Shown one piece after another: positions 1 to 44,142 of a DNA stretch of 64,000 nt. The notes beneath the pieces were generated by a model. The model had not been told where the DNA came from and did no database searches. It saw only the letters and a list, made by a program, of their open reading frames with translations. The stretch lies in the NCBI RefSeq assembly GCF_011045215.1, contig NZ_CP049201.1; one strand, given 5' to 3'. Position 1 is the first letter of the stretch. Every line of letters starts with the position of its first letter. The stretch comes from Escherichia coli. Its GTDB lineage: Bacteria > Pseudomonadota > Gammaproteobacteria > Enterobacterales > Enterobacteriaceae. Both the position numbers and the translations under genes were made by a program.

Positions 1-56
1 GCACTGCTGGACACCCAGCCCACATCCTGACGCGCTTCGCTTGTCTGCTGCTTCGC

Positions 57-81
57 CGGGGCATAAAAAATTTATGCCCCG
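57..81. other. Perfect inverted repeat / stem-loop (CGGGGCATAAA-aaa-TTTATGCCCCG)
   Basis: 11-bp arms read directly; no adjacent T-tract, so not a canonical intrinsic terminator. Confidence 0.5.
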
Positions 82-560
82 ACTCTCCAGCTCCTGTATC
101 AATCAGATAATTTCACGACGTCTTCCAGCTTATTGCCATCATCGACGGTCAGGCTCTTACGCAATCCCATCGCGCTGACTGCATGTTCTCGCCGCCTCAG
201 TGCGATTTTGACGGCCTTATCTGCCACCCCATCAAATCAAAAGCCCTCACGTCTTTTTCACGCTCAGCGTGAGAAATACAGCCATTCTGTTGTGTTGCTG
301 CGACATCGTTCAGGGGATGCTATTTATCCCCTGAAACGCGGGCTGTTCCCCCGTCACCTGCGCGCAGAAAAAACGCGTTTTTTTGTGCACGCACGGATCC
401 TTGACGGATCCAGCCGCCACGGGGGCCGGAAGGGCAAAAAGTCGTTCAAAAAAATTGTGCAAATTTGTGCACTATCGTGCAGTGTGCATCGTGCTGTTTT
501 CTGCGCAAAAAACGGATGGTAAATTTGTTCGTAGCAGGGAAATTTTAATGAGCGCAAGAC

Positions 561-1091
561 ATGAAGAAAGATTCATATCCTTATTTGATTTGCATGACTG
601 TTTCAGTGCTAGGGATTATTTTCCTCTTTTACTGGTGGAGGGCAGATATCTACAGGATTACATATCTTAATTCGCGTATATCCAATTATTACATCTTGTG
701 TAGTATGGGTATGTCCTTTTTCTTCTCCTTGTTTCTGGTGAAGAGGGGGGTAGTGAAGCAAAGTGGCTGGAAAGGACTGTCGGAATACCTGAAGGTTTAT
801 GCTGGCTCTTGCATTCTTACAGGGATATTCCTGATTATTCCTCTTATGATGGTGACTTATTTTTTACCAGGAGTAACATCATCATATGTTGCACCGTATG
901 AGTATACATCTGGTAGTTCAAGAAGCTGTTCCGGAGCGTTTGTTGATGATCCCGAACTGCATAAAAATATTCTTATTTGCTATCCGTATGGTAACTATGA
1001 ATATGACAATATTATCTATGTTGAAAAGAAAACTAATGCATTGGGCGTTGTTGTGACGTATGCACAGACTGCACGAGACGATGCTGAATAA
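561..1091 (+). CDS. Hypothetical polytopic membrane protein (about 3 predicted TM helices, soluble C-terminal ~80 aa); AT-rich cargo gene
   Basis: 176-aa ORF with three long hydrophobic segments; strongly AT-rich relative to flanking DNA; no family recognised. Confidence 0.5.
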   Translation: MKKDSYPYLICMTVSVLGIIFLFYWWRADIYRITYLNSRISNYYILCSMGMSFFFSLFLVKRGVVKQSGWKGLSEYLKVYAGSCILTGIFLIIPLMMVTYFLPGVTSSYVAPYEYTSGSSRSCSGAFVDDPELHKNILICYPYGNYEYDNIIYVEKKTNALGVVVTYAQTARDDAE

Positions 1092-1282
1092 GATACTACA
1101 GATATAGTCCACTTTTTTGTTTATTTGTCGGGATAAAAACAAATTACCCCGACTCACCATGTATTAATCTTCCGCTTTAAGTTAGTATTTTAGCTGCGCT
1201 GTCCTGCTATTCAGCAAAGCGGCGTACTTTAATGCGTCCTGTGCTTTCTGGAATTTAAGTGCATAGTCAGTGGCGATTTTTT

Positions 1283-1564
1283 CTAGTTCAGCGATTCGGT
1301 TGTTTTTGGTTTCCAGCCAATCAAGTAGCGCCAATACTTCAGGATCCCGACATCCAACACTGTTACGCGTGATTTTTCATAATGTTCGTCGGCAAGAGTT
1401 CGGCCAATTTTGAAATCTCCATCATCACCATAACCGGAGCAGGCATAAACAACCTGTGCTCCAGATATTCGCTGAATTGACATTTCCTCGCCGCAAATAG
1501 GGCATTTCGGTACTGGCACAGGTGAATAACGTTCACGTAATGCCTGATAGTTGATTTCGCTCAT
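1283..1564 (-). CDS. Small zinc-ribbon protein (CPICG...CSG); probably frameshifted, coding signal continues in another frame to 1185
   Basis: 93-aa ORF with CxxC...C motif; protein-like translation continues in a second frame (DPEVLALLDWLETKNNRIAELEK...) past the stop at 1283. Confidence 0.4.
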   Translation of the reverse strand: MSEINYQALRERYSPVPVPKCPICGEEMSIQRISGAQVVYACSGYGDDGDFKIGRTLADEHYEKSRVTVLDVGILKYWRYLIGWKPKTTESLN

Positions 1565-1627
1565 TAAGTCGTTCTCCTTGTTTATGTTCTGAGGTGGAGA
1601 GCAGGGCGAACTCGCCCTGATGTTGTG

Positions 1628-1939
1628 TTATTCAGGAAATAACGCCCGGATATTTCCGGCCATCTGACTGGTTATCTGTGCGGTTGATACTGGCTGTGAT
1701 GCGGGGCGTTCTGTCCTGGTTTGTGTCACTGATAACGCTTCATCATCAGCCCATGCAGCTAGTCGGTAAGCCTCTGCCGGATTCATTTTCAGAAGTGCCA
1801 GCCCGGCCAGAAAAGCCACACGTTGGCCGCTTTTGCGGGCTTCTGGTGTAAGGCTGTCCAGCCAGGCGCATGCTTCGCCTTCGTTCTTGACGGCGGCGGG
1901 CTTCAGATAGAAACTTATCCGTCTGGTTGGTGTCGTCAT
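1628..1939 (-). CDS. parR: ParR (StbB)-like centromere-binding protein
   Basis: 103 aa from Met at 1939; resembles plasmid R1 ParR (from memory); AAGGAG RBS; starts 4 nt after parM stop. Confidence 0.55.
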   Translation of the reverse strand: MTTPTRRISFYLKPAAVKNEGEACAWLDSLTPEARKSGQRVAFLAGLALLKMNPAEAYRLAAWADDEALSVTQTRTERPASQPVSTAQITSQMAGNIRALFPE

Positions 1940-1943
1940 TGGT

Positions 1944-2903
1944 TTACTCCTTGTCCATTGCGTACAGCCCATTAACCAGAGCAAACTGTGGCACCCCGTC
2001 CGCGATGAAAGTCGCATTAACTCCGCAGGCTTCGCGGATAGCGGGTGCCACAATCTCCGCCCCGCCACCGACAACCATCACCCGCCCGTAACCCGAAAAA
2101 ACCGCCAGCGCGCGGATCACGCGTTGTTTCAGTGTTTCTTCCTTTTCACGAATAACCGCCATCAGGCTGGCGTAATGCGCGTCATTGTGGATGTGTTGGC
2201 GCAACCAGGCTTCATCATGGCGATGTTCGATAATGGTATTGGCGATGTGGTGACTGGTACGCATACCGTTAGCGGCCATCACCGACAGCACGGCACCGGC
2301 CATCAGGGAGACGCCTACGTGTGGATCGCAAAACACCTGGCTGATACCTGCCAGTTGCCCCTGAACCTTTGCCACATCCAGCGTGGTTCCGCCTAAATCC
2401 ACAATCAGCAGGGATTCAAACGGACTCATGTCAGCCAGTGCTTTAAAGCCAGCCGGAATGGATTCAGGCATAACCCGCACGTTACGGATAGTGAATGCTT
2501 CGCCGTTCTGGTACTCCACCGGGCGCATAACGTTCGCTTTTTTGCGGTTGATGTTGGCCATGTCCGGCTGTGCGTTTGTGTCGAAATACTCGCTCAGTGG
2601 CAGGGTGACAACCACATCCACCTCCTGTGGCGTGATGCCTGATTTGACCAGCGTGTGATGAATGGCGATTACATTCACATCGCTGTACTGGTATTGCGTG
2701 TCGGTCGTCTGGACAAAGCGATCGCTGACCGGATCAAAACCATAGCGCACGCCATCAAGCATGTAGTTCGCGGGCTGCATGCCACCGAACGGCGCAGATC
2801 ATTCCGACTTGAAGCTGTTCGGGCTGATGGCGTTGCGGCGTTCGCCATTCTCAGTCCATGCCAGCTTGATGTTGGTGGAGCCGTCGTCGATACAAATTTT
2901 CAT
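1944..2903 (-). pseudogene. parM: ParM (StbA)-like actin-type partition ATPase, interrupted by in-frame TGA at 2799-2801
   Basis: N-terminus MKICIDDGSTNIKLAW...NSFKSE then TGA, then in-frame continuation SAPFGGMQPANYML...; strong similarity to R1 ParM (from memory), where this position is Trp. Confidence 0.75.
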
Positions 2904-2932
2904 GTCGCTTTTCCTTATGTTGATTAATTAAT

Positions 2933-3050
2933 CGTTTACGGGATTCTGAAATCCCGTTTTTGCCTGTTTTGTGTGCGCTTCATATATCGCGGCGCGTTTT
3001 TTGCTCATTTACGGGATTTGTGAATCCCGTTTCTGTCTGTTTTTTGTTTC
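2933..3050. repeat. Two copies (2933-2975, 3006-3050) of a ~45-bp repeat, each with palindrome ACGGGATT-N4-AATCCCGT; candidate parC-like centromere/operator
   Basis: Direct repeat with internal inverted repeat, immediately upstream of the parM start. Confidence 0.6.
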
Positions 3051-4533
3051 CACTGGTCAGGCCACCCCGCAGCAGGTCTGCTTTGCGGCGGGCACGTTCA
3101 GTGGTTTCACTGATTCTCTGTGCGTGCTCTGCGTCGCGGATGGCGCGCAGCATGTCAGAAAGCACGGTAACGGGGGTTTTCATGGTGTTCTGGTCCTGCT
3201 GAAGTGTGGATGCCAGACGTGCGGCGGCTTCGAGGTCTGATGCCCCCAGCTGTTCCAGATAGCTGGCGACCGGGTTATGGCGGATCTCCGTGCTGCTTAC
3301 GCCGTGATTACGGCTCAGGCGCTGCCAGAGCTGCGTGATTCGGCTGTCCGGGCGGGTATCCGGTTTGCGTACAATTTCAAATCCCTGCGGTGCAATGATG
3401 CTGCCGTCAACGTACAGGCTGCCGCCCCGTAACAGGTGCTGCATCTGCTGTTCACCGATATGCATGCCGAGAGATTCGGCAGATTCCCGCCATTCTTTAG
3501 CGAGTAATTCGTGGTTATCAGGCAAAGGCCGCTGCTGTTTGCGGCTCTGTGTCCAGCTCTGCATTTCATCACTGCTGTTTTTTGCCTGTTTGTCACGCAG
3601 CGAACGCATCAGCGCCCGGCGTTCGTGCCGTTTCAGTGAGCGCACCCATTCATCCACATCAACGCCGTCAGGAAGCTGCGGCCACGGTGCTGGCCGTTCT
3701 TCCGGCTGTTCTGTCCCGTTGTTGTCCGTTTCCTGTACACGGGGACAGTTATTGCCACGAGTCCAAGGGGCGGCAGGGCCGCTCTGAAGGTCAAAACCAT
3801 TTTCGCGGGAGCTGTCTTCCGCTTCCGGTTTGCGTCTTACCAGCTTCCAGTTATCCGGATGCGTGCATACGCGGGAAGACTCCCCGATGAGCGGCGACCA
3901 GATCCCGTAAATCTGTACACTCTGCTCACCGTAATCGTTCAGTTCATCTGCGAGGTCGTAGGCGGTGCGAATCAGGTAGTCTTTGCGTGGAACAAGCACG
4001 CCACCCTGTTTTTCAATGTAGGTGGCAAAACACCCGGCATCAGCGGCAGCGAGTACCGCATCCATTGCGTCATCCTTCAGCCGTTGCGGGCCTTCCGGGT
4101 TGCGTGCCATCTGGCTGGCAAGGCGGCGCAGTTCACGCCACACCTGACGGGAGGGGATACCAAAGAACTGGAACTGGCGGACCCGGTGAAGGCGCGCCCA
4201 GCCGATGGCGCGTTCCACGCTCTCGGCCATTGATTTTCCGGTTTCGTGGTCAACGCGTGGCTTGCCCGTTTTCGGGTCGATGCCATCCACGGCGCGGCTG
4301 TCCAGGTTCTTTCCGATGTAGGTGGCGATGTAGCTGGTTGGCGTGCCTTTTGAGCCGTCGACGTACTCCGCCTTAAAACGCGGAGTTATGTCATCGCCCA
4401 GCTCGTGGCGGTCTTCCTGAATGGCAATATCGCAGACGTGGGACACGATGGTTTCAATCTCGTCCGGATGTGCAAAGACCATCATATGCCAGTGCACAGT
4501 GCCGTCATGGTGAGGCTCCAGCGGTGTATTCAC
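2980..4533 (-). pseudogene. HUH-motif rolling-circle replication initiator, P2 gpA-like; apparently 5'-truncated
   Basis: 517-aa ORF begins at GTG right at the motif HHDGTVHWHMMVFAHPDE, preceded by in-frame TGA; upstream 300 bp is coding-like in two other frames. Confidence 0.5.
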
Positions 4534-4686
4534 TCAGCGAGGCACACCCGCCAGCAGTGTGATGCGCCAGCATTGCCGCAAATACGGAGGCCGGGGAGTC
4601 GTAATACGCCAGCAGTGATTCGCCATGCGGTGTCAGGCAGCGCAACGCCAGCCCGTGTGGTGTTAAGTCCACGCGGTAGCAGTCGT

Positions 4687-4836
4687 CTACTGTGAAATAA
4701 AGGGTGAGCGTTGTTCTTTAGCTGCCATTTCATCAATGACGGCTCGCTCTTCGAGGGACAGCCGAAGTGCCAGTCTTGGACCTGTGGCGGTGTTACGCGG
4801 AATGCGTGATCTGGTATCGTGAAGAACTTGTTTCAT
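4687..4836 (-). CDS. Small 49-aa ORF divergent from the XRE gene (possible Cox/excisionase-like or RHH regulator)
   Basis: ATG at 4836 to TAG at 4687; below the 60-aa ORF-track cutoff; position equivalent to cox in a P2-type early region. Confidence 0.3.
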   Translation of the reverse strand: MKQVLHDTRSRIPRNTATGPRLALRLSLEERAVIDEMAAKEQRSPFISQ

Positions 4837-4878
4837 AGTGGTATATTGTGATCATCTAATAGCTCATGAAATCATTTT

Positions 4879-4896
4879 GGTATCAAAAAAGATACC
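4879..4896. promoter_or_regulatory. Palindrome GGTATC-N6-GATACC in the divergent promoter region; candidate operator
   Basis: 6-bp perfect inverted arms with A6 spacer between divergent starts at 4836 and 4912. Confidence 0.35.
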
Positions 4897-4911
4897 TGTC
4901 AAGGTTTTTGT

Positions 4912-5316
4912 ATGAAAAATGATATTGGTCAGCGGTTGCGTGAGGAAAGGGAAAGATTGGGGCTTAGTCAAGTTGCTATGAGCGACATTGGTGGAGTCAA
5001 AAAGCTAACTCAGCTTAGATATGAGAAAGGAGATAGCTTTCCTGATGCTGCGTATTTGGCAGCGCTGTCTCGTTTTGGCCTTGATGTTCAGTATGTTGTG
5101 TTGGGAATTCACTCACCTGAAACTTATAACGATGATGAGCAGGAGTTGATTACTCGCTTTCGAGCAGCTTCGTTAGATGTAAAAAACGCGGTGATCGGGG
5201 CTTTAAAAGGTGCGGGCAGTGAAAAGGAAACTCAGCCATCAGGGCGTGAGTTAAATATTTCTGGTGGTAATAACCGTATCGCTGGTCGTGACTATAACGA
5301 AACTAAGGGTAGGTGA
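4912..5316 (+). CDS. XRE-family helix-turn-helix protein (repressor-like) with C-terminal tail carrying an NNRIAGRDYNE motif
   Basis: N-terminal HTH signature (IGQRLREERERLGLSQVAMSDIGGVKKLTQLRYEKG); low GC. Confidence 0.7.
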   Translation: MKNDIGQRLREERERLGLSQVAMSDIGGVKKLTQLRYEKGDSFPDAAYLAALSRFGLDVQYVVLGIHSPETYNDDEQELITRFRAASLDVKNAVIGALKGAGSEKETQPSGRELNISGGNNRIAGRDYNETKGR

Positions 5317-5331
5317 TAGTAGGGAGGTGAC

Positions 5332-5982
5332 ATGGCCGTCAACTCAAACGGTTCAAACAATCGCGTTGCTGGGCGTGATTTTCACGAAAAGAATATTCAG
5401 ATAGAGCGATATGATGGTTCTCATACCGTCAATATCGCAATCCCTTCGAATAATGATGATGACGCTCGCCCTTTGCTTAAGGCACAGCGTAAGGAGCTAA
5501 ATAGCTTGGTTGCTGCTATTGCAGAAGCTAGCAATACTGAAGCGTTTATTATTTGGCAAAAAGTACATGCGGAGATTGGTGTAGCTGGTATTGATGATAT
5601 GACAATAAATCAATATAAAACAGCGGAGAGTTTTCTGCATGCAATGCTTGAGCGATGTAAAGATCATGATGCCTGTAAGACTCTTGTAAGTTTATTACTA
5701 CGTAACAGTGAAGACTGTGGACTTCGACAAAAACTTCTGCGGTATTGCCATATCAATTTCGGTACAGGACGTTTAAACGATCTTACTCGTTCTCAGTTAC
5801 AGTCTGCATTGTCGTGGTTAGAGCAACAATCGGTATCAAGCCACTCAGAGAATTCGACCTTACCAGAAGTTCGCCTTCGTGCTTCAGAATTAATCCGATT
5901 TTATCCAAAAGAAATAATATTCTTTATCTGCGTAGGGGTTTTGGTAGGCGGAGCCATTTCTAGGATGTTTTTTAATTTGTAA
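5332..5982 (+). CDS. Hypothetical protein, cytoplasmic domain plus single C-terminal transmembrane anchor; N-terminus repeats the NNRVAGRDFHE motif
   Basis: 216 aa; strong RBS AGGGAGGTGA 5 nt upstream; C-terminal hydrophobic segment IIFFICVGVLVGGAI; low GC. Confidence 0.6.
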   Translation: MAVNSNGSNNRVAGRDFHEKNIQIERYDGSHTVNIAIPSNNDDDARPLLKAQRKELNSLVAAIAEASNTEAFIIWQKVHAEIGVAGIDDMTINQYKTAESFLHAMLERCKDHDACKTLVSLLLRNSEDCGLRQKLLRYCHINFGTGRLNDLTRSQLQSALSWLEQQSVSSHSENSTLPEVRLRASELIRFYPKEIIFFICVGVLVGGAISRMFFNL

Positions 5983-6011
5983 TCTTACTTGAGCTAAATT
6001 GAGGCAATGAC

Positions 6012-6359
6012 ATGAAAGTAAAAAAGGTTCAACTATTAGTTGCTTTTTTATCTATGTTTTCTTTTTCCGCCGTCGCAATGCCTTTTAAAACTATTGAACG
6101 TGAGAGTTTCAATGGAGTATGGCCATTTAATACAGATGAGGTTCAATTGCAGTGTCTTGATGGTAATCCTTATGTGATGAATTTTGACGATAATAAGTTA
6201 TATGCGCTTACAGGTTTGGCTCGAATAAAAGGTAAAACATTTGGTGCGTTACCGTTAGATAACAATAATCCATTTTGGCTAGATAATGATGCCGCCCCAG
6301 GGTTAAAAAAGAATCTGGGGGACGTCACTAAGGCTGCATTTGATTTATGTGATAAGTAA
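6012..6359 (+). CDS. Small secreted/periplasmic protein with signal peptide (tentatively DUF2511/YebY-like)
   Basis: 115 aa; N-terminal signal peptide MKVKKVQLLVAFLSMFSFSAVA; family assignment from memory only. Confidence 0.55.
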   Translation: MKVKKVQLLVAFLSMFSFSAVAMPFKTIERESFNGVWPFNTDEVQLQCLDGNPYVMNFDDNKLYALTGLARIKGKTFGALPLDNNNPFWLDNDAAPGLKKNLGDVTKAAFDLCDK

Positions 6360-6364
6360 CAAAA

Positions 6365-7366
6365 ATGTCGGTTCGTAAAACTCCATCAGGTAAATGGCTT
6401 TGCGAATGTTATCCCTACGGAGCATCGGGAAAACGCATTCGTAAACAGTTTGCGACAAAAAGTGAGGCGCTCTCTTATGAGCGCCGTTTAATGAATAGTA
6501 GAGTTGGAGACGAGTTTCAAGATGGTTCTGGTCCTCGTCTTTCTGAGTTGATTGCTCGTTGGTTTGAGATGTACGGAAAAACCTTGTCCTCTGGTGCAGA
6601 GCGCAAAGTCAAACTTGAGGCGATTTGTTCTAGGCTGGGAGATCCATTTGCTTCTCAGTTTGACAAAAATATGTTTGCTACTTATCGGGAAAGAAGGCTA
6701 TCAGGAGAATGGAATCCCAAGGGGAAGAAAAAACTTAGTGAAGCAACCGTTAATCGCGAGCAGTCATATCTACATGCTGTTTTTGCCGAACTGAAGCGCC
6801 TTGGGGAGTGGTCTGGTGAAAACCCCCTGACTGGAATTCGCAAGTTTCGTGAGGAAGAAAAGGAGCTGGCGTTTCTGTATGTAGATGAGATTGAACGCCT
6901 TTTGATTGCGTGTGATGATTCACGGAATAAAGATTTGGGGGTTGTTGTCCGTATTGGGCTTGCGACTGGTGCTCGGTGGAGTGAAGCAGAAGGATTAAAG
7001 CAATCTCAAGTACTGCCCGGTCGAATCACATTTGTTAAAACTAAAGGAAAGAAGAACCGCACTGTACCGATTTCACCTCAATTGCAGGCTATGCTTCCTA
7101 AAAAACGAGGAGCGCTATTTTCACCATGTTATGAGGCTTTTGACGCTGCAATTAAGAGAGCGAAGATAGAGCTCCCTGATGGGCAATTAACTCATGTGCT
7201 ACGTCACACGTTTGCTAGTCATTTTATGATGCGGGGCGGAAATATTCTTGTGTTGCAAAAAATACTGGGGCATAGCGATATAAAAATGACTATGCGTTAT
7301 GCGCATTTTGCTCCGGGTCATTTAGAGGCTGCTGTTGAATTAAACCCTTTTGACAATAGAGGGTAA
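6365..7366 (+). CDS. int: Tyrosine recombinase, P2-type phage integrase
   Basis: 333 aa; motifs LATGARWSEA, ITFVKTKGKKNRTVPIS, HVLRHTFASHFMMRGGNILVLQKILGH, MRYAHF closely match P2 Int (from memory). Confidence 0.9.
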   Translation: MSVRKTPSGKWLCECYPYGASGKRIRKQFATKSEALSYERRLMNSRVGDEFQDGSGPRLSELIARWFEMYGKTLSSGAERKVKLEAICSRLGDPFASQFDKNMFATYRERRLSGEWNPKGKKKLSEATVNREQSYLHAVFAELKRLGEWSGENPLTGIRKFREEEKELAFLYVDEIERLLIACDDSRNKDLGVVVRIGLATGARWSEAEGLKQSQVLPGRITFVKTKGKKNRTVPISPQLQAMLPKKRGALFSPCYEAFDAAIKRAKIELPDGQLTHVLRHTFASHFMMRGGNILVLQKILGHSDIKMTMRYAHFAPGHLEAAVELNPFDNRG

Positions 7367-7472
7367 AAAGTGGCGATAAAAAGTGACAATAGATTCAAAT
7401 GGCGTCGTATAGAGCTATTTGCAAAGTTAATAAAATCATAAGGTTATGATTTATAAATGGTGGTTGATAGTT

Positions 7473-7527
7473 TTTAAAATCCCTCGGCGTTCGCGCTGTG
7501 CGGGTTCAAGTCCCGCTCCGGGTACCA
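7473..7527 (+). other. leuZ: 3' ~55 nt of tRNA-Leu (leuZ) ending in CCA: attachment-site core; not an intact tRNA
   Basis: TTTAAAATCCCTCGGCGTTCGCGCTGTGCGGGTTCAAGTCCCGCTCCGGGTACCA matches the leuZ 3' part; upstream sequence only partly tRNA-like, no acceptor-stem 5' strand. Confidence 0.8.
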
Positions 7528-7570
7528 TGGGAAAGATAAGAATAAAATCAAAGCAATAAGCAGTGTCGTG

Positions 7571-7596
7571 AAACCACCTTCGGGTGGTTTTTTTGT
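7571..7596 (+). terminator. Intrinsic terminator of the leuZ tRNA operon
   Basis: AAACCACC-TTCG-GGTGGTTT stem followed by T-run. Confidence 0.8.
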
Positions 7597-10797: not shown

Positions 10798-11121
10798 TTA
10801 GAGAAAGACAGGGAAGGCGGAATGATGGCACTGATATGACAAAGTGAATTCCGTATTCAAACATAAGGAACCCGCAAAAAGGCTACAGTTGCCTACTGGC
10901 TGACCAAAGGGGATCGCGTGGGTATAGCCTTCCTGCTGGCATGCGCGATCGGCGATCCCGCGACTGACATAACGATCGGTATGGGCATGCTGCAAAAAAG
11001 CCTGGTCATAAACCAACCGTACAATACCTGTTGCCGCGTCAACTTCGCTCACATGGGCCTGGCGAGTAACTGTACACCCCGCCAGCGTTATTAATGAAAG
11101 AGTCAGAATCAGAAGTCTCAT
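10798..11121 (-). CDS. yecR: Lipoprotein YecR
   Basis: 107 aa; signal peptide with lipobox LAGC. Confidence 0.85.
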   Translation of the reverse strand: MRLLILTLSLITLAGCTVTRQAHVSEVDAATGIVRLVYDQAFLQHAHTDRYVSRGIADRACQQEGYTHAIPFGQPVGNCSLFAGSLCLNTEFTLSYQCHHSAFPVFL

Positions 11122-11285
11122 GGTCCAGCCAGAAGAGTAAGAGAAAGCACTATTTTACGCGTTACAGCGCTGCGACAATGGCCGGAAAAGACGCCTGGCA
11201 GGCGCTATTTCTTGCCATCTGTAGGTGTCAGAAATAGGGGGGCTGTTTTTGGATTATCATTTTTATAACATTAAAGGGGTATTTA

Positions 11286-11301
11286 TGTGATTTGTATCAC
11301 A
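11286..11301. promoter_or_regulatory. CRP binding site (TGTGA-N6-TCACA) upstream of azuC
   Basis: Perfect match to CRP half-sites. Confidence 0.6.
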
Positions 11302-11383
11302 TAAAGATTGATTTTTGTGATGGTTGTCATATTATAAGCGCAAAGACAATAACACCTGTATAACAAATGGTCGGAGTGCCGCG

Positions 11384-11470
11384 ATGAAACTGCGCAAAAT
11401 CCTGAAAAGTATGTTCAATAACTATTGCAAGACGTTCAAAGACGTACCGCCAGGCAATATGTTCCGATAA
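11384..11470 (+). CDS. azuC: 28-aa small protein AzuC (dual-function AzuCR/IsrB RNA)
   Basis: ATG...TAA encodes MKLRKILKSMFNNYCKTFKDVPPGNMFR; absent from ORF track (<60 aa). Confidence 0.85.
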   Translation: MKLRKILKSMFNNYCKTFKDVPPGNMFR

Positions 11471-11474
11471 CAAA

Positions 11475-11499
11475 AAACCTGCTCCGGCAGGTTTTTTTG
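11475..11499 (+). terminator. Intrinsic terminator of azuC
   Basis: ACCTGC-TCCG-GCAGGT stem then T7. Confidence 0.8.
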
Positions 11500-11584
11500 T
11501 GTCCTGATGACGGTGGATGTGACTATCGTTGAAGATGTGAAGCCGCTACTATAACGGTTTTCAAAATGCTATCAGGAGTTTACG

Positions 11585-11836
11585 ATGTCCCAGCCGCTGA
11601 ATGCCGATCAGGAACTGGTTTCTGATGTGGTTGCTTGCCAGTTGGTTATCAAACAAATTCTGGATGTTCTCGATGTAATCGCGCCCGTTGAAGTTCGCGA
11701 AAAAATGTCCAGCCAGCTGAAGAATATCGACTTTACTAACCATCCCGCCGCCGCAGACCCGGTCACCATGCGGGCAATCCAAAAAGCCATCGCGCTGATT
11801 GAACTCAAGTTTACCCCACAGGGCGAATCCCATTAA
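11585..11836 (+). CDS. yecJ: Small protein YecJ
   Basis: 83 aa; synteny. Confidence 0.85.
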
Positions 11837-19590: not shown

Positions 19591-20369
19591 AACCTGTTCC
19601 TTATTCTGTGAACTTCAGGTGACATTAAAGCTTTACTCCTAATGGAGAAACGACGCAATCCCAACTCGGTCAAACAGGTAAATATTAGTCTGATTATTAG
19701 TAAAGACAATTAATCAATCACTCCCGGTGATCATATAATTTCAAATGTAATTATAAGAAAATAGTGTACTGATTCTCCGCATTAAACAAGTGGTTAATAT
19801 ATGTAAAACATTTCATTAACATTAAGTTGATTGTTGCCTTTCTTTGTATTTAATTAGTTTGTTGTGCGGTAAGTGTCTGTTTAAAAATAGCTTATCTGGT
19901 ATTGCATGAAAGTGATTATTTATAGCAGATGATTATTTACGGTGAGTTATTTTAACTGTGCGCAACATCCCATTTCGATTATTCCTGTTTCATTTTTGCT
20001 TGCTAGCGTAGCGAAAAACTTTTTAACAGATTGAAATACACCCAAAACAAAAGTATGACTTATACATTTATGTTAAGTAATTGAGTGTTTTGTGTGATCT
20101 GCATCACACATTATTGAAAATCGCAGCCCCCCTCCGTTGTATGTGCGTGTAGTGACGAGTACAGTTGCGTCGATTTAGGAAAAATCTTAGATAAGTGTAA
20201 AGACCCATTTCTATTTGTAAGGACATATTAAACCAAAAAGGTGGTTCTGCTTATTGCAGATTATCGCAACTATTCTAATGCTAATTATTTTTTACCGGGG
20301 CTTCCCGGCGACATCACGGGGTGCGGTGAAACCGCATAAAAATAAAGTTGGTTATTCTGGGTGGGAATA
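19591..20369. promoter_or_regulatory. flhDC upstream regulatory region (AT-rich, ~780 bp)
   Basis: Long AT-rich intergenic region upstream of flhD; no transposase ORF present. Confidence 0.6.
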
Positions 20370-39293: not shown

Positions 39294-40049
<756 letters not shown>

Positions 40050-40095
40050 TTTTTACCGTTGCATCATGTCGCCCAATATGATGCTTGCTCGTACC

Positions 40096-40128
40096 AGGCC
40101 CCTGCAATTTCAACAGGGGCCTTTTTTT
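40096..40128 (+). terminator. Intrinsic terminator after cutC
   Basis: AGGCCCCTG...CAGGGGCCT stem then T7. Confidence 0.8.
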
Positions 40129-44040: not shown

Positions 44041-44142
44041 CTGCCTGATGCGCTATGCTTATCAGGCCTACATAGTCCCTGCAATATATTGAATTAGCAA
44101 GGTTTTGTAGGCCGGATAAGGCGTTCACGCCGCATCCGGCAG
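44041..44142. repeat. REP/BIME palindromic elements
   Basis: GCCTGATGCGCTA...TAGGCCGGATAAGGCGTTCACGCCGCATCCGGCA. Confidence 0.75.

Follow-up and report, generated by a model that had tools for sequence, protein, structure and literature searches.

The azuC/AzuCR locus and its surroundings

The analysed window is a stretch of 64,000 nt of Escherichia coli DNA, in which a 28-codon open reading frame lies on the plus strand at 11384-11470, with its ATG at 11384 and its TAA at 11468-11470. Its translation, MKLRKILKSMFNNYCKTFKDVPPGNMFR, is identical to AzuC of K-12 (YP_002791245.1, gene b4663) and scores 75.9 bits against the NCBIfam equivalog model NF033642, 'stress response protein AzuC' (cut-off 30, E = 1.3e-21). 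The frame sits between yecR (10798-11121, minus strand) and yecJ (11585-11836, plus strand), as in K-12 and other strains, and the wider gene order (yecH, ftnA, yecR, azuC, yecJ, ftnB, araF) is that of K-12 as well. The preliminary description of this DNA had named the frame azuC from the sequence alone and had suggested a comparison with the azuC/AzuCR locus of K-12. This comparison gave 100% identity to E. coli K-12 MG1655 across 11252-11528, without any mismatch, a segment that holds the promoter, both CRP-like sites, the 5' UTR, the coding sequence and the terminator.

Window positions are converted by K-12 = 1999343 - window position. On the matching bases, the K-12 annotation places azuC (b4663) at 1987873-1987959, corresponding to window 11384-11470, and the ncRNA azuR/AzuCR (b4434, formerly IsrB/IS092), which spans azuC, at 1987843-1988001, corresponding to window 11342-11500. 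The locus itself thus holds no difference from K-12 and the neighbours yecR, yecJ, ftnB and ftnA are shared, while five substitutions are found in the flanks, at 11168, 11251, 11529, 11543 and 11558. The features are listed below; invariance refers to the alignment of seven Escherichia sequences described in the next section.

11267-11283, unstranded: published NarP repressor motif (K-12 1988060-1988076, PMC12266141 Table 3), placed here by mapping of coordinates only; contains AGGGGTA at 11275-11281
11286-11301, unstranded: CRP operator 1, perfect core TGTGA-TTTGTA-TCACA, 10/10, centred at -48.5 from the start
11308-11313, plus strand: -35 hexamer TTGATT from the promoter scan, invariant, with a 16-bp spacer to the -10
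11316-11331, unstranded: CRP operator 2, TGTGA-TGGTTG-TCATA (TGTGATGGTTGTCATA), 9/10, centred at -18.5, overlapping the spacer and the -10
11330-11335, plus strand: -10 hexamer TATTAT from the promoter scan, invariant, ending 6 nt before the published start
11342-11505, plus strand: dual-function RNA AzuCR (azuR/IsrB/IS092), starting with the A at 11342 (K-12 1988001)
11373-11376, plus strand: Shine-Dalgarno GGAG, 7 nt before the ATG, with the published FnrS pairing nearby
11384-11470, plus strand: azuC coding sequence, 28 codons and TAA, for an amphipathic, membrane-associated protein; the published cadA/galE pairing region lies inside it
11472-11498, plus strand: intrinsic terminator from folding, A6, CCTGC, loop TCCG, GCAGG, T7

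This is almost certainly the E. coli azuC/AzuCR locus (IsrB, IS092), with its promoter, RNA, 28-residue protein, intrinsic terminator and repression by CRP. With 95-100% identity, it was seen in 5,418-5,419 of the 5,426 complete genomes of E. coli, and the most divergent E. coli copies share one protein accession, WP_010723106.1. The functions considered below for the window strain would be those of K-12, carried over by sequence identity. As the preliminary description stated, azuC is absent from the ORF track, and this is due solely to the 60-aa threshold of that first-stage track. The gene as such is not overlooked, however, since public records of E. coli carry its annotation as a matter of routine and it is named in all RefSeq records among those listed. 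Gene, RNA, regulator and targets have already been published and annotated, and the finding is correct but ordinary. It may serve as a calibration case, in that a reading of raw sequence can recover a real 28-codon gene under the ORF cut-off. Points that go beyond the preliminary description are the role of CRP as a repressor here, a second CRP-like site over the -10, the dual function of the RNA and the routine annotation of the gene.

Elsewhere in the window, the strain differs from K-12 by a P2-family prophage (integrase ORF at 6365-7366) inserted in the tRNA gene leuZ, within window 1-7595, and by having no IS1 upstream of flhD, where the match to a K-12-like record splits in two around that element. 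Only the 3' part of leuZ, about 55 nt (7473-7527), is left as a remnant adjoining yecA. Next to it stands the 3'ETS-leuZ sponge sRNA, complete at about 7528-7595 but separated from the glyW-cysT-leuZ promoter. ARAGORN identified no tRNA anywhere in the 64 kb. Matches at the Rfam gathering score were obtained for MicL (39821-40128, plus strand, 373.7 bits), C0465 (25751-25828, minus strand, 109.8 bits) and ES036/CssrF (44064-44106, minus strand, 45.5 bits).

The small protein and its RNA

To assemble related sequences, a codon-degenerate pattern for MFNNYCK was run over 100,044 species genomes. Besides about 30 unrelated chance matches, it recovered three Escherichia genomes, namely E. whittamii, Escherichia sp. 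E1V33 and a divergent genome titled E. coli (SCPM-O-B-8794). No MFNNYCK match was obtained in Salmonella, Citrobacter and other genera in this collection, which is weak evidence of absence, since the collection seems incomplete: the typical E. coli form was not recovered despite fitting the pattern. The azuC region of SCPM-O-B-8794 (NZ_JAATUR010000018.1) diverges from the window as much as those of E. whittamii and Escherichia sp. E1V33 and has a different, shorter yecR-azuC spacer; this genome probably represents a cryptic lineage of Escherichia rather than true E. coli. The alignment (n = 7) consists of the three divergent genomes found by the pattern, the window and three E. coli copies taken from among the most divergent, and is counted here as four E. 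coli and three other Escherichia species.

Within the coding sequence, 12 columns of this alignment are variable, ten of them third codon positions (binomial p = 0.0005). Codons 10-16 are biased, as the pattern that retrieved the three non-coli loci required them; with these codons left out, eight of ten variable columns are third positions (p = 0.003). The sole amino-acid change across the seven sequences is the conservative K8R, so that the protein is identical or K8R in four species. The Shine-Dalgarno is invariant, as is the TCGGAGT around it. With a helical hydrophobic moment of 0.54 over residues 1-19, a value reached by 1.8% of shuffles, the predicted protein agrees with the published account of K-12 AzuC, in which it is amphipathic and associated with the inner membrane, co-purifying with GlpD and raising dehydrogenase activity (PMC8915982).

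The chance that the RNA is a purely non-coding sRNA (IsrB) and the 28-codon frame a fortuitous one is practically negligible. The RNA was indeed first identified as the sRNA candidate IS092/IsrB, RefSeq places an ncRNA across the locus, and AzuCR does act by base pairing. A chance frame is nevertheless hard to reconcile with the clustering of substitutions at third positions, the near-constant protein and Shine-Dalgarno described above, and the existence of a curated NCBIfam equivalog model. In K-12, moreover, this reading has already been refuted by published experiments with tagged protein and a stop-codon mutant; detection of tagged AzuC, ribosome binding and co-purification with GlpD have all been described (PMC8915982). 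The frame is thus taken as the azuC gene. Two other frames were rejected. When ORFs are listed at a minimum of 20 aa, the azuC frame appears as a 48-aa ORF with a TTG start (11324-11470), whose start codon precedes the transcription start and which carries a frameshift in the other species. An antisense ORF, also of 48 aa and once annotated as c2317 in CFT073 (PMC3141248), is not conserved, with many of its residues changing.

As for the RNA, its start at K-12 1988001 is stated in PMC8915982, while its 3' end differs between sources, RefSeq ending it at 11500 (159 nt) and PMC8915982 giving a length of 164 nt. The strong intrinsic terminator that had been noticed after the frame is borne out by folding: the hairpin AAAAAACCUGC-UCCG-GCAGGUUUUUUU (DNA: AAAAAACCTGC-TCCG-GCAGGTTTTTTT) at 11472-11498 has a free energy of -16 kcal/mol (z = -4.9), and 0 of 200 shuffles were as stable. 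Stem and loop are invariant, and the seven sequences differ in run length only. A simple terminator scan of the window did not list this hairpin, probably because pairing between its A-run and the U-run leaves no free tail.

The fold of AzuCR as a whole is not unusual (z = -1.5), and no family of Rfam 15 matches AzuCR/IsrB at the gathering score. Rfam seems to be without a model for AzuCR, and the miss does not count against membership. Sub-threshold matches to STnc370 (11466-11530, minus strand, 36.3 bits; 11420-11503, plus strand, 27 bits; gathering score 54) and to rsmX do fall on the azuC terminator. An identity of AzuCR with either family was rejected, these being terminator look-alikes below threshold; STnc370 matches on both strands because the terminator is a symmetric A6-stem-T7 hairpin.

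Around the start of AzuCR, positions 11336-11349 (-6 to +8) are hypervariable, with 11 of 14 columns varying and a 1-nt indel among the seven Escherichia sequences. No variation is seen in the flanks of this region, which comprise the CRP half-sites, the -35, the -10 and the greater part of the 5' UTR. Given these hypervariable columns, the exact 5' end of AzuCR may differ between species.

[quoted passage not shown] The evidence for the cadA, galE and FnrS pairings consists of compensatory mutations (PMC8915982). When windowed duplexes were computed, cadA -16 to +10 with AzuCR 89-114 gave -24.2 kcal/mol, galE +17 to +44 with AzuCR gave -19.8 kcal/mol and FnrS 28-52 with AzuCR 17-43 (window 11358-11384) gave -20.7 kcal/mol, in each case a plausible site but no better than with shuffled targets; unrestricted RNAduplex returned meaningless full-length duplexes. 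As the predicted duplexes do no better than shuffles, the pairing of AzuCR with its targets is taken entirely from the published compensatory mutations.

CRP-type palindromes and candidate regulators

Upstream of azuC, the perfect TGTGA-N6-TCACA core that the preliminary description had reported is present as TGTGATTTGTATCACA, exactly at 11286-11301. Perfect cores of this type are rare, with two in the 64-kb window where 0.11 would be expected from shuffles. Only three sites in the window have at most one mismatch to the CRP core: two at azuC, 30 bp apart, and a third at flhD. This third site is the other perfect core (20093-20108, TGTGATCTGCATCACA), lying upstream of flhD, where the flhDC promoter has a known CRP site.

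In the seven Escherichia sequences, all ten half-site bases of operator 1 are invariant while three of its six spacer bases vary, and operator 2 likewise has invariant half-sites with two of six spacer bases varying. Taken together, 0 of 20 half-site columns vary versus 5 of 12 spacer columns (Fisher p = 0.004), and versus 26 of 78 other promoter columns (Fisher p = 0.001). The -35 and -10 hexamers are equally constant (0 of 12 columns). With half-sites fixed and coding changes almost all synonymous, this comparative pattern is that of a 28-codon gene which is translated and whose promoter carries two CRP-type palindromes under constraint.

Two predicted CRP sites have been described in the azuC promoter (PMC8915982 Fig. 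1 legend; PMC12266141). AzuC is higher in a crp mutant and the RNA is low without glucose; through CRP-mediated repression, AzuCR and its protein are abundant in glucose and scarce in glycerol or galactose (PMC8915982). In the genomic SELEX with cAMP-CRP of Shimada et al. (PMC3105977), the intergenic fragment between yecJ and yecR topped the clone counts (59 clones), and isrB is listed among the known CRP targets recovered. Neither operator stands at an activating position (class II, -41.5; class I, -61.5, -71.5 etc.), their centres being at -48.5 and -18.5. CRP as an activator of azuC was ruled out by the position of the sites together with the published repression. The effect of the crp mutant and the predicted CRP sites were reportedly first shown by Hemm in 2010 (J Bacteriol 192:46).

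Instead of azuC, or besides it, the palindrome could serve a divergent yecR promoter with CRP as its activator, which is regarded as quite improbable. It does lie in the intergenic region that yecR and azuC have in common, at a distance of 172 bp from the start codon of yecR, and Shimada et al. counted 'one of' yecJ/yecR as a CRP target, sites between divergent genes often controlling both (PMC3105977). The promoter scan, however, identified no sigma-70-like promoter on the minus strand in 11122-11300, and conservation between E. coli and other Escherichia is poor to the left of about 11250, whereas the conserved block runs on without a break into the azuC promoter. The published CRP dependence, furthermore, concerns AzuC and AzuCR (PMC8915982), and nothing was found on yecR. 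Repression of azuC by CRP is the reading retained. Between yecR and the azuC promoter, a terminator-like hairpin is seen at 11192-11214 on the plus strand (CGCCTGGCAGGCG, then CTATTTCTTG). There is no upstream gene on the same strand needing a terminator, and roughly one match of this kind is expected by chance in the scan.

FNR is a member of the same protein family as CRP and binds related half-sites; the two kinds of site are distinguished by the outer base, which is G for CRP and T for FNR. In the FNR register, the palindrome at 11286-11301 reads GTGAT-TTGT-ATCAC, an 8/10 match to TTGAT-N4-ATCAA with both mismatches at the outer base, and the outer G/C is invariant in all seven Escherichia sequences. 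Matches of 8/10 to FNR are also common, with 51 in the window versus 38 expected, in contrast to the rare perfect CRP cores. That this palindrome is mainly an FNR operator for anaerobic repression, and not a CRP site, is therefore unlikely, although a study from 2025 does assign it to FNR: motif matches were placed at K-12 1988039-1988055 and 1988042-1988058, corresponding to window 11285-11304, and either mutation of the motif or deletion of fnr relieved the repression of an isrB reporter (PMC12266141). The drop of AzuC levels under anaerobic conditions (PMC8915982) fits such an operator as well. Mutating the 'FNR' motif, however, necessarily destroys the CRP core too, and the isrB reporter was read in stationary phase in a glucose medium (PMC12266141), where cAMP-CRP is expected to be active once glucose is exhausted. 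The same fragment, moreover, is the top clone of the CRP SELEX (PMC3105977).

The two readings are not mutually exclusive, and no published experiments separating CRP from FNR at the palindrome were found. Based on the outer-base mismatches, the invariant G/C, the frequency of 8/10 FNR matches and the loss of the CRP core in the motif mutant, CRP would rank first, with FNR use of the same bases being possible but unproven. What is exposed here is a small conflict in the literature, as the CRP and FNR assignments fall on one palindrome.

Further motifs have been placed next to it in PMC12266141. A PhoP motif maps to window 11280-11297 and overlaps the CRP palindrome, derepression was observed when the FNR, PhoP or NarP motif was mutated individually, and occupancy changes were placed 'further upstream' of the annotated CRP sites. 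In the region of the NarP motif, the block TAACATTAAAG..GTATTT is largely conserved in the seven Escherichia sequences. A more speculative proposal, which is held to be doubtful, is that the palindrome is a shared operator of CRP and FNR, maybe overlapping PhoP and NarP sites, and may also reach the divergent yecR promoter. If true, control of a dual-function RNA by carbon, oxygen and cations would converge on one 16-bp element.

Proposed working and comparison with known systems

In the working proposed for the locus, the sigma-70 promoter (TTGATT/TATTAT) would start an RNA of about 160 nt at 11342, ending at the terminator at 11472-11498, and AzuC, the 28-residue amphipathic protein, would be translated from GGAG-N7-ATG. 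Repression of transcription by cAMP-CRP would account for the abundance of the RNA in glucose and its scarcity in glycerol or galactose. As judged from the spacing and geometry of the sites, two CRP dimers may occupy the sites at -48.5 and -18.5, whose centres are 30 bp from each other. The dimer on the downstream site would cover the spacer and the -10 hexamer and so exclude RNA polymerase, while the perfect upstream site might provide affinity.

With its operator over the core promoter, azuC would resemble other CRP-repressed promoters, the geometry placing a site centred at -18.5 over the -10 and spacer. Unlike these, it carries an extra perfect site 30 bp upstream, at -48.5, which is neither class I nor class II. 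Among CRP-repressed sRNAs, Spot 42 is named in PMC8915982. SgrS/SgrT, Spot 42/SpfP and Vibrio VcdRP/VcdP have no sequence relationship to AzuCR, and none was matched in Rfam. They are nonetheless similar to AzuCR in combining an mRNA-pairing sRNA with a small protein that acts on sugar metabolism. AzuCR differs from all three in that its pairing region lies within the coding sequence, so that the two activities compete (PMC8915982).
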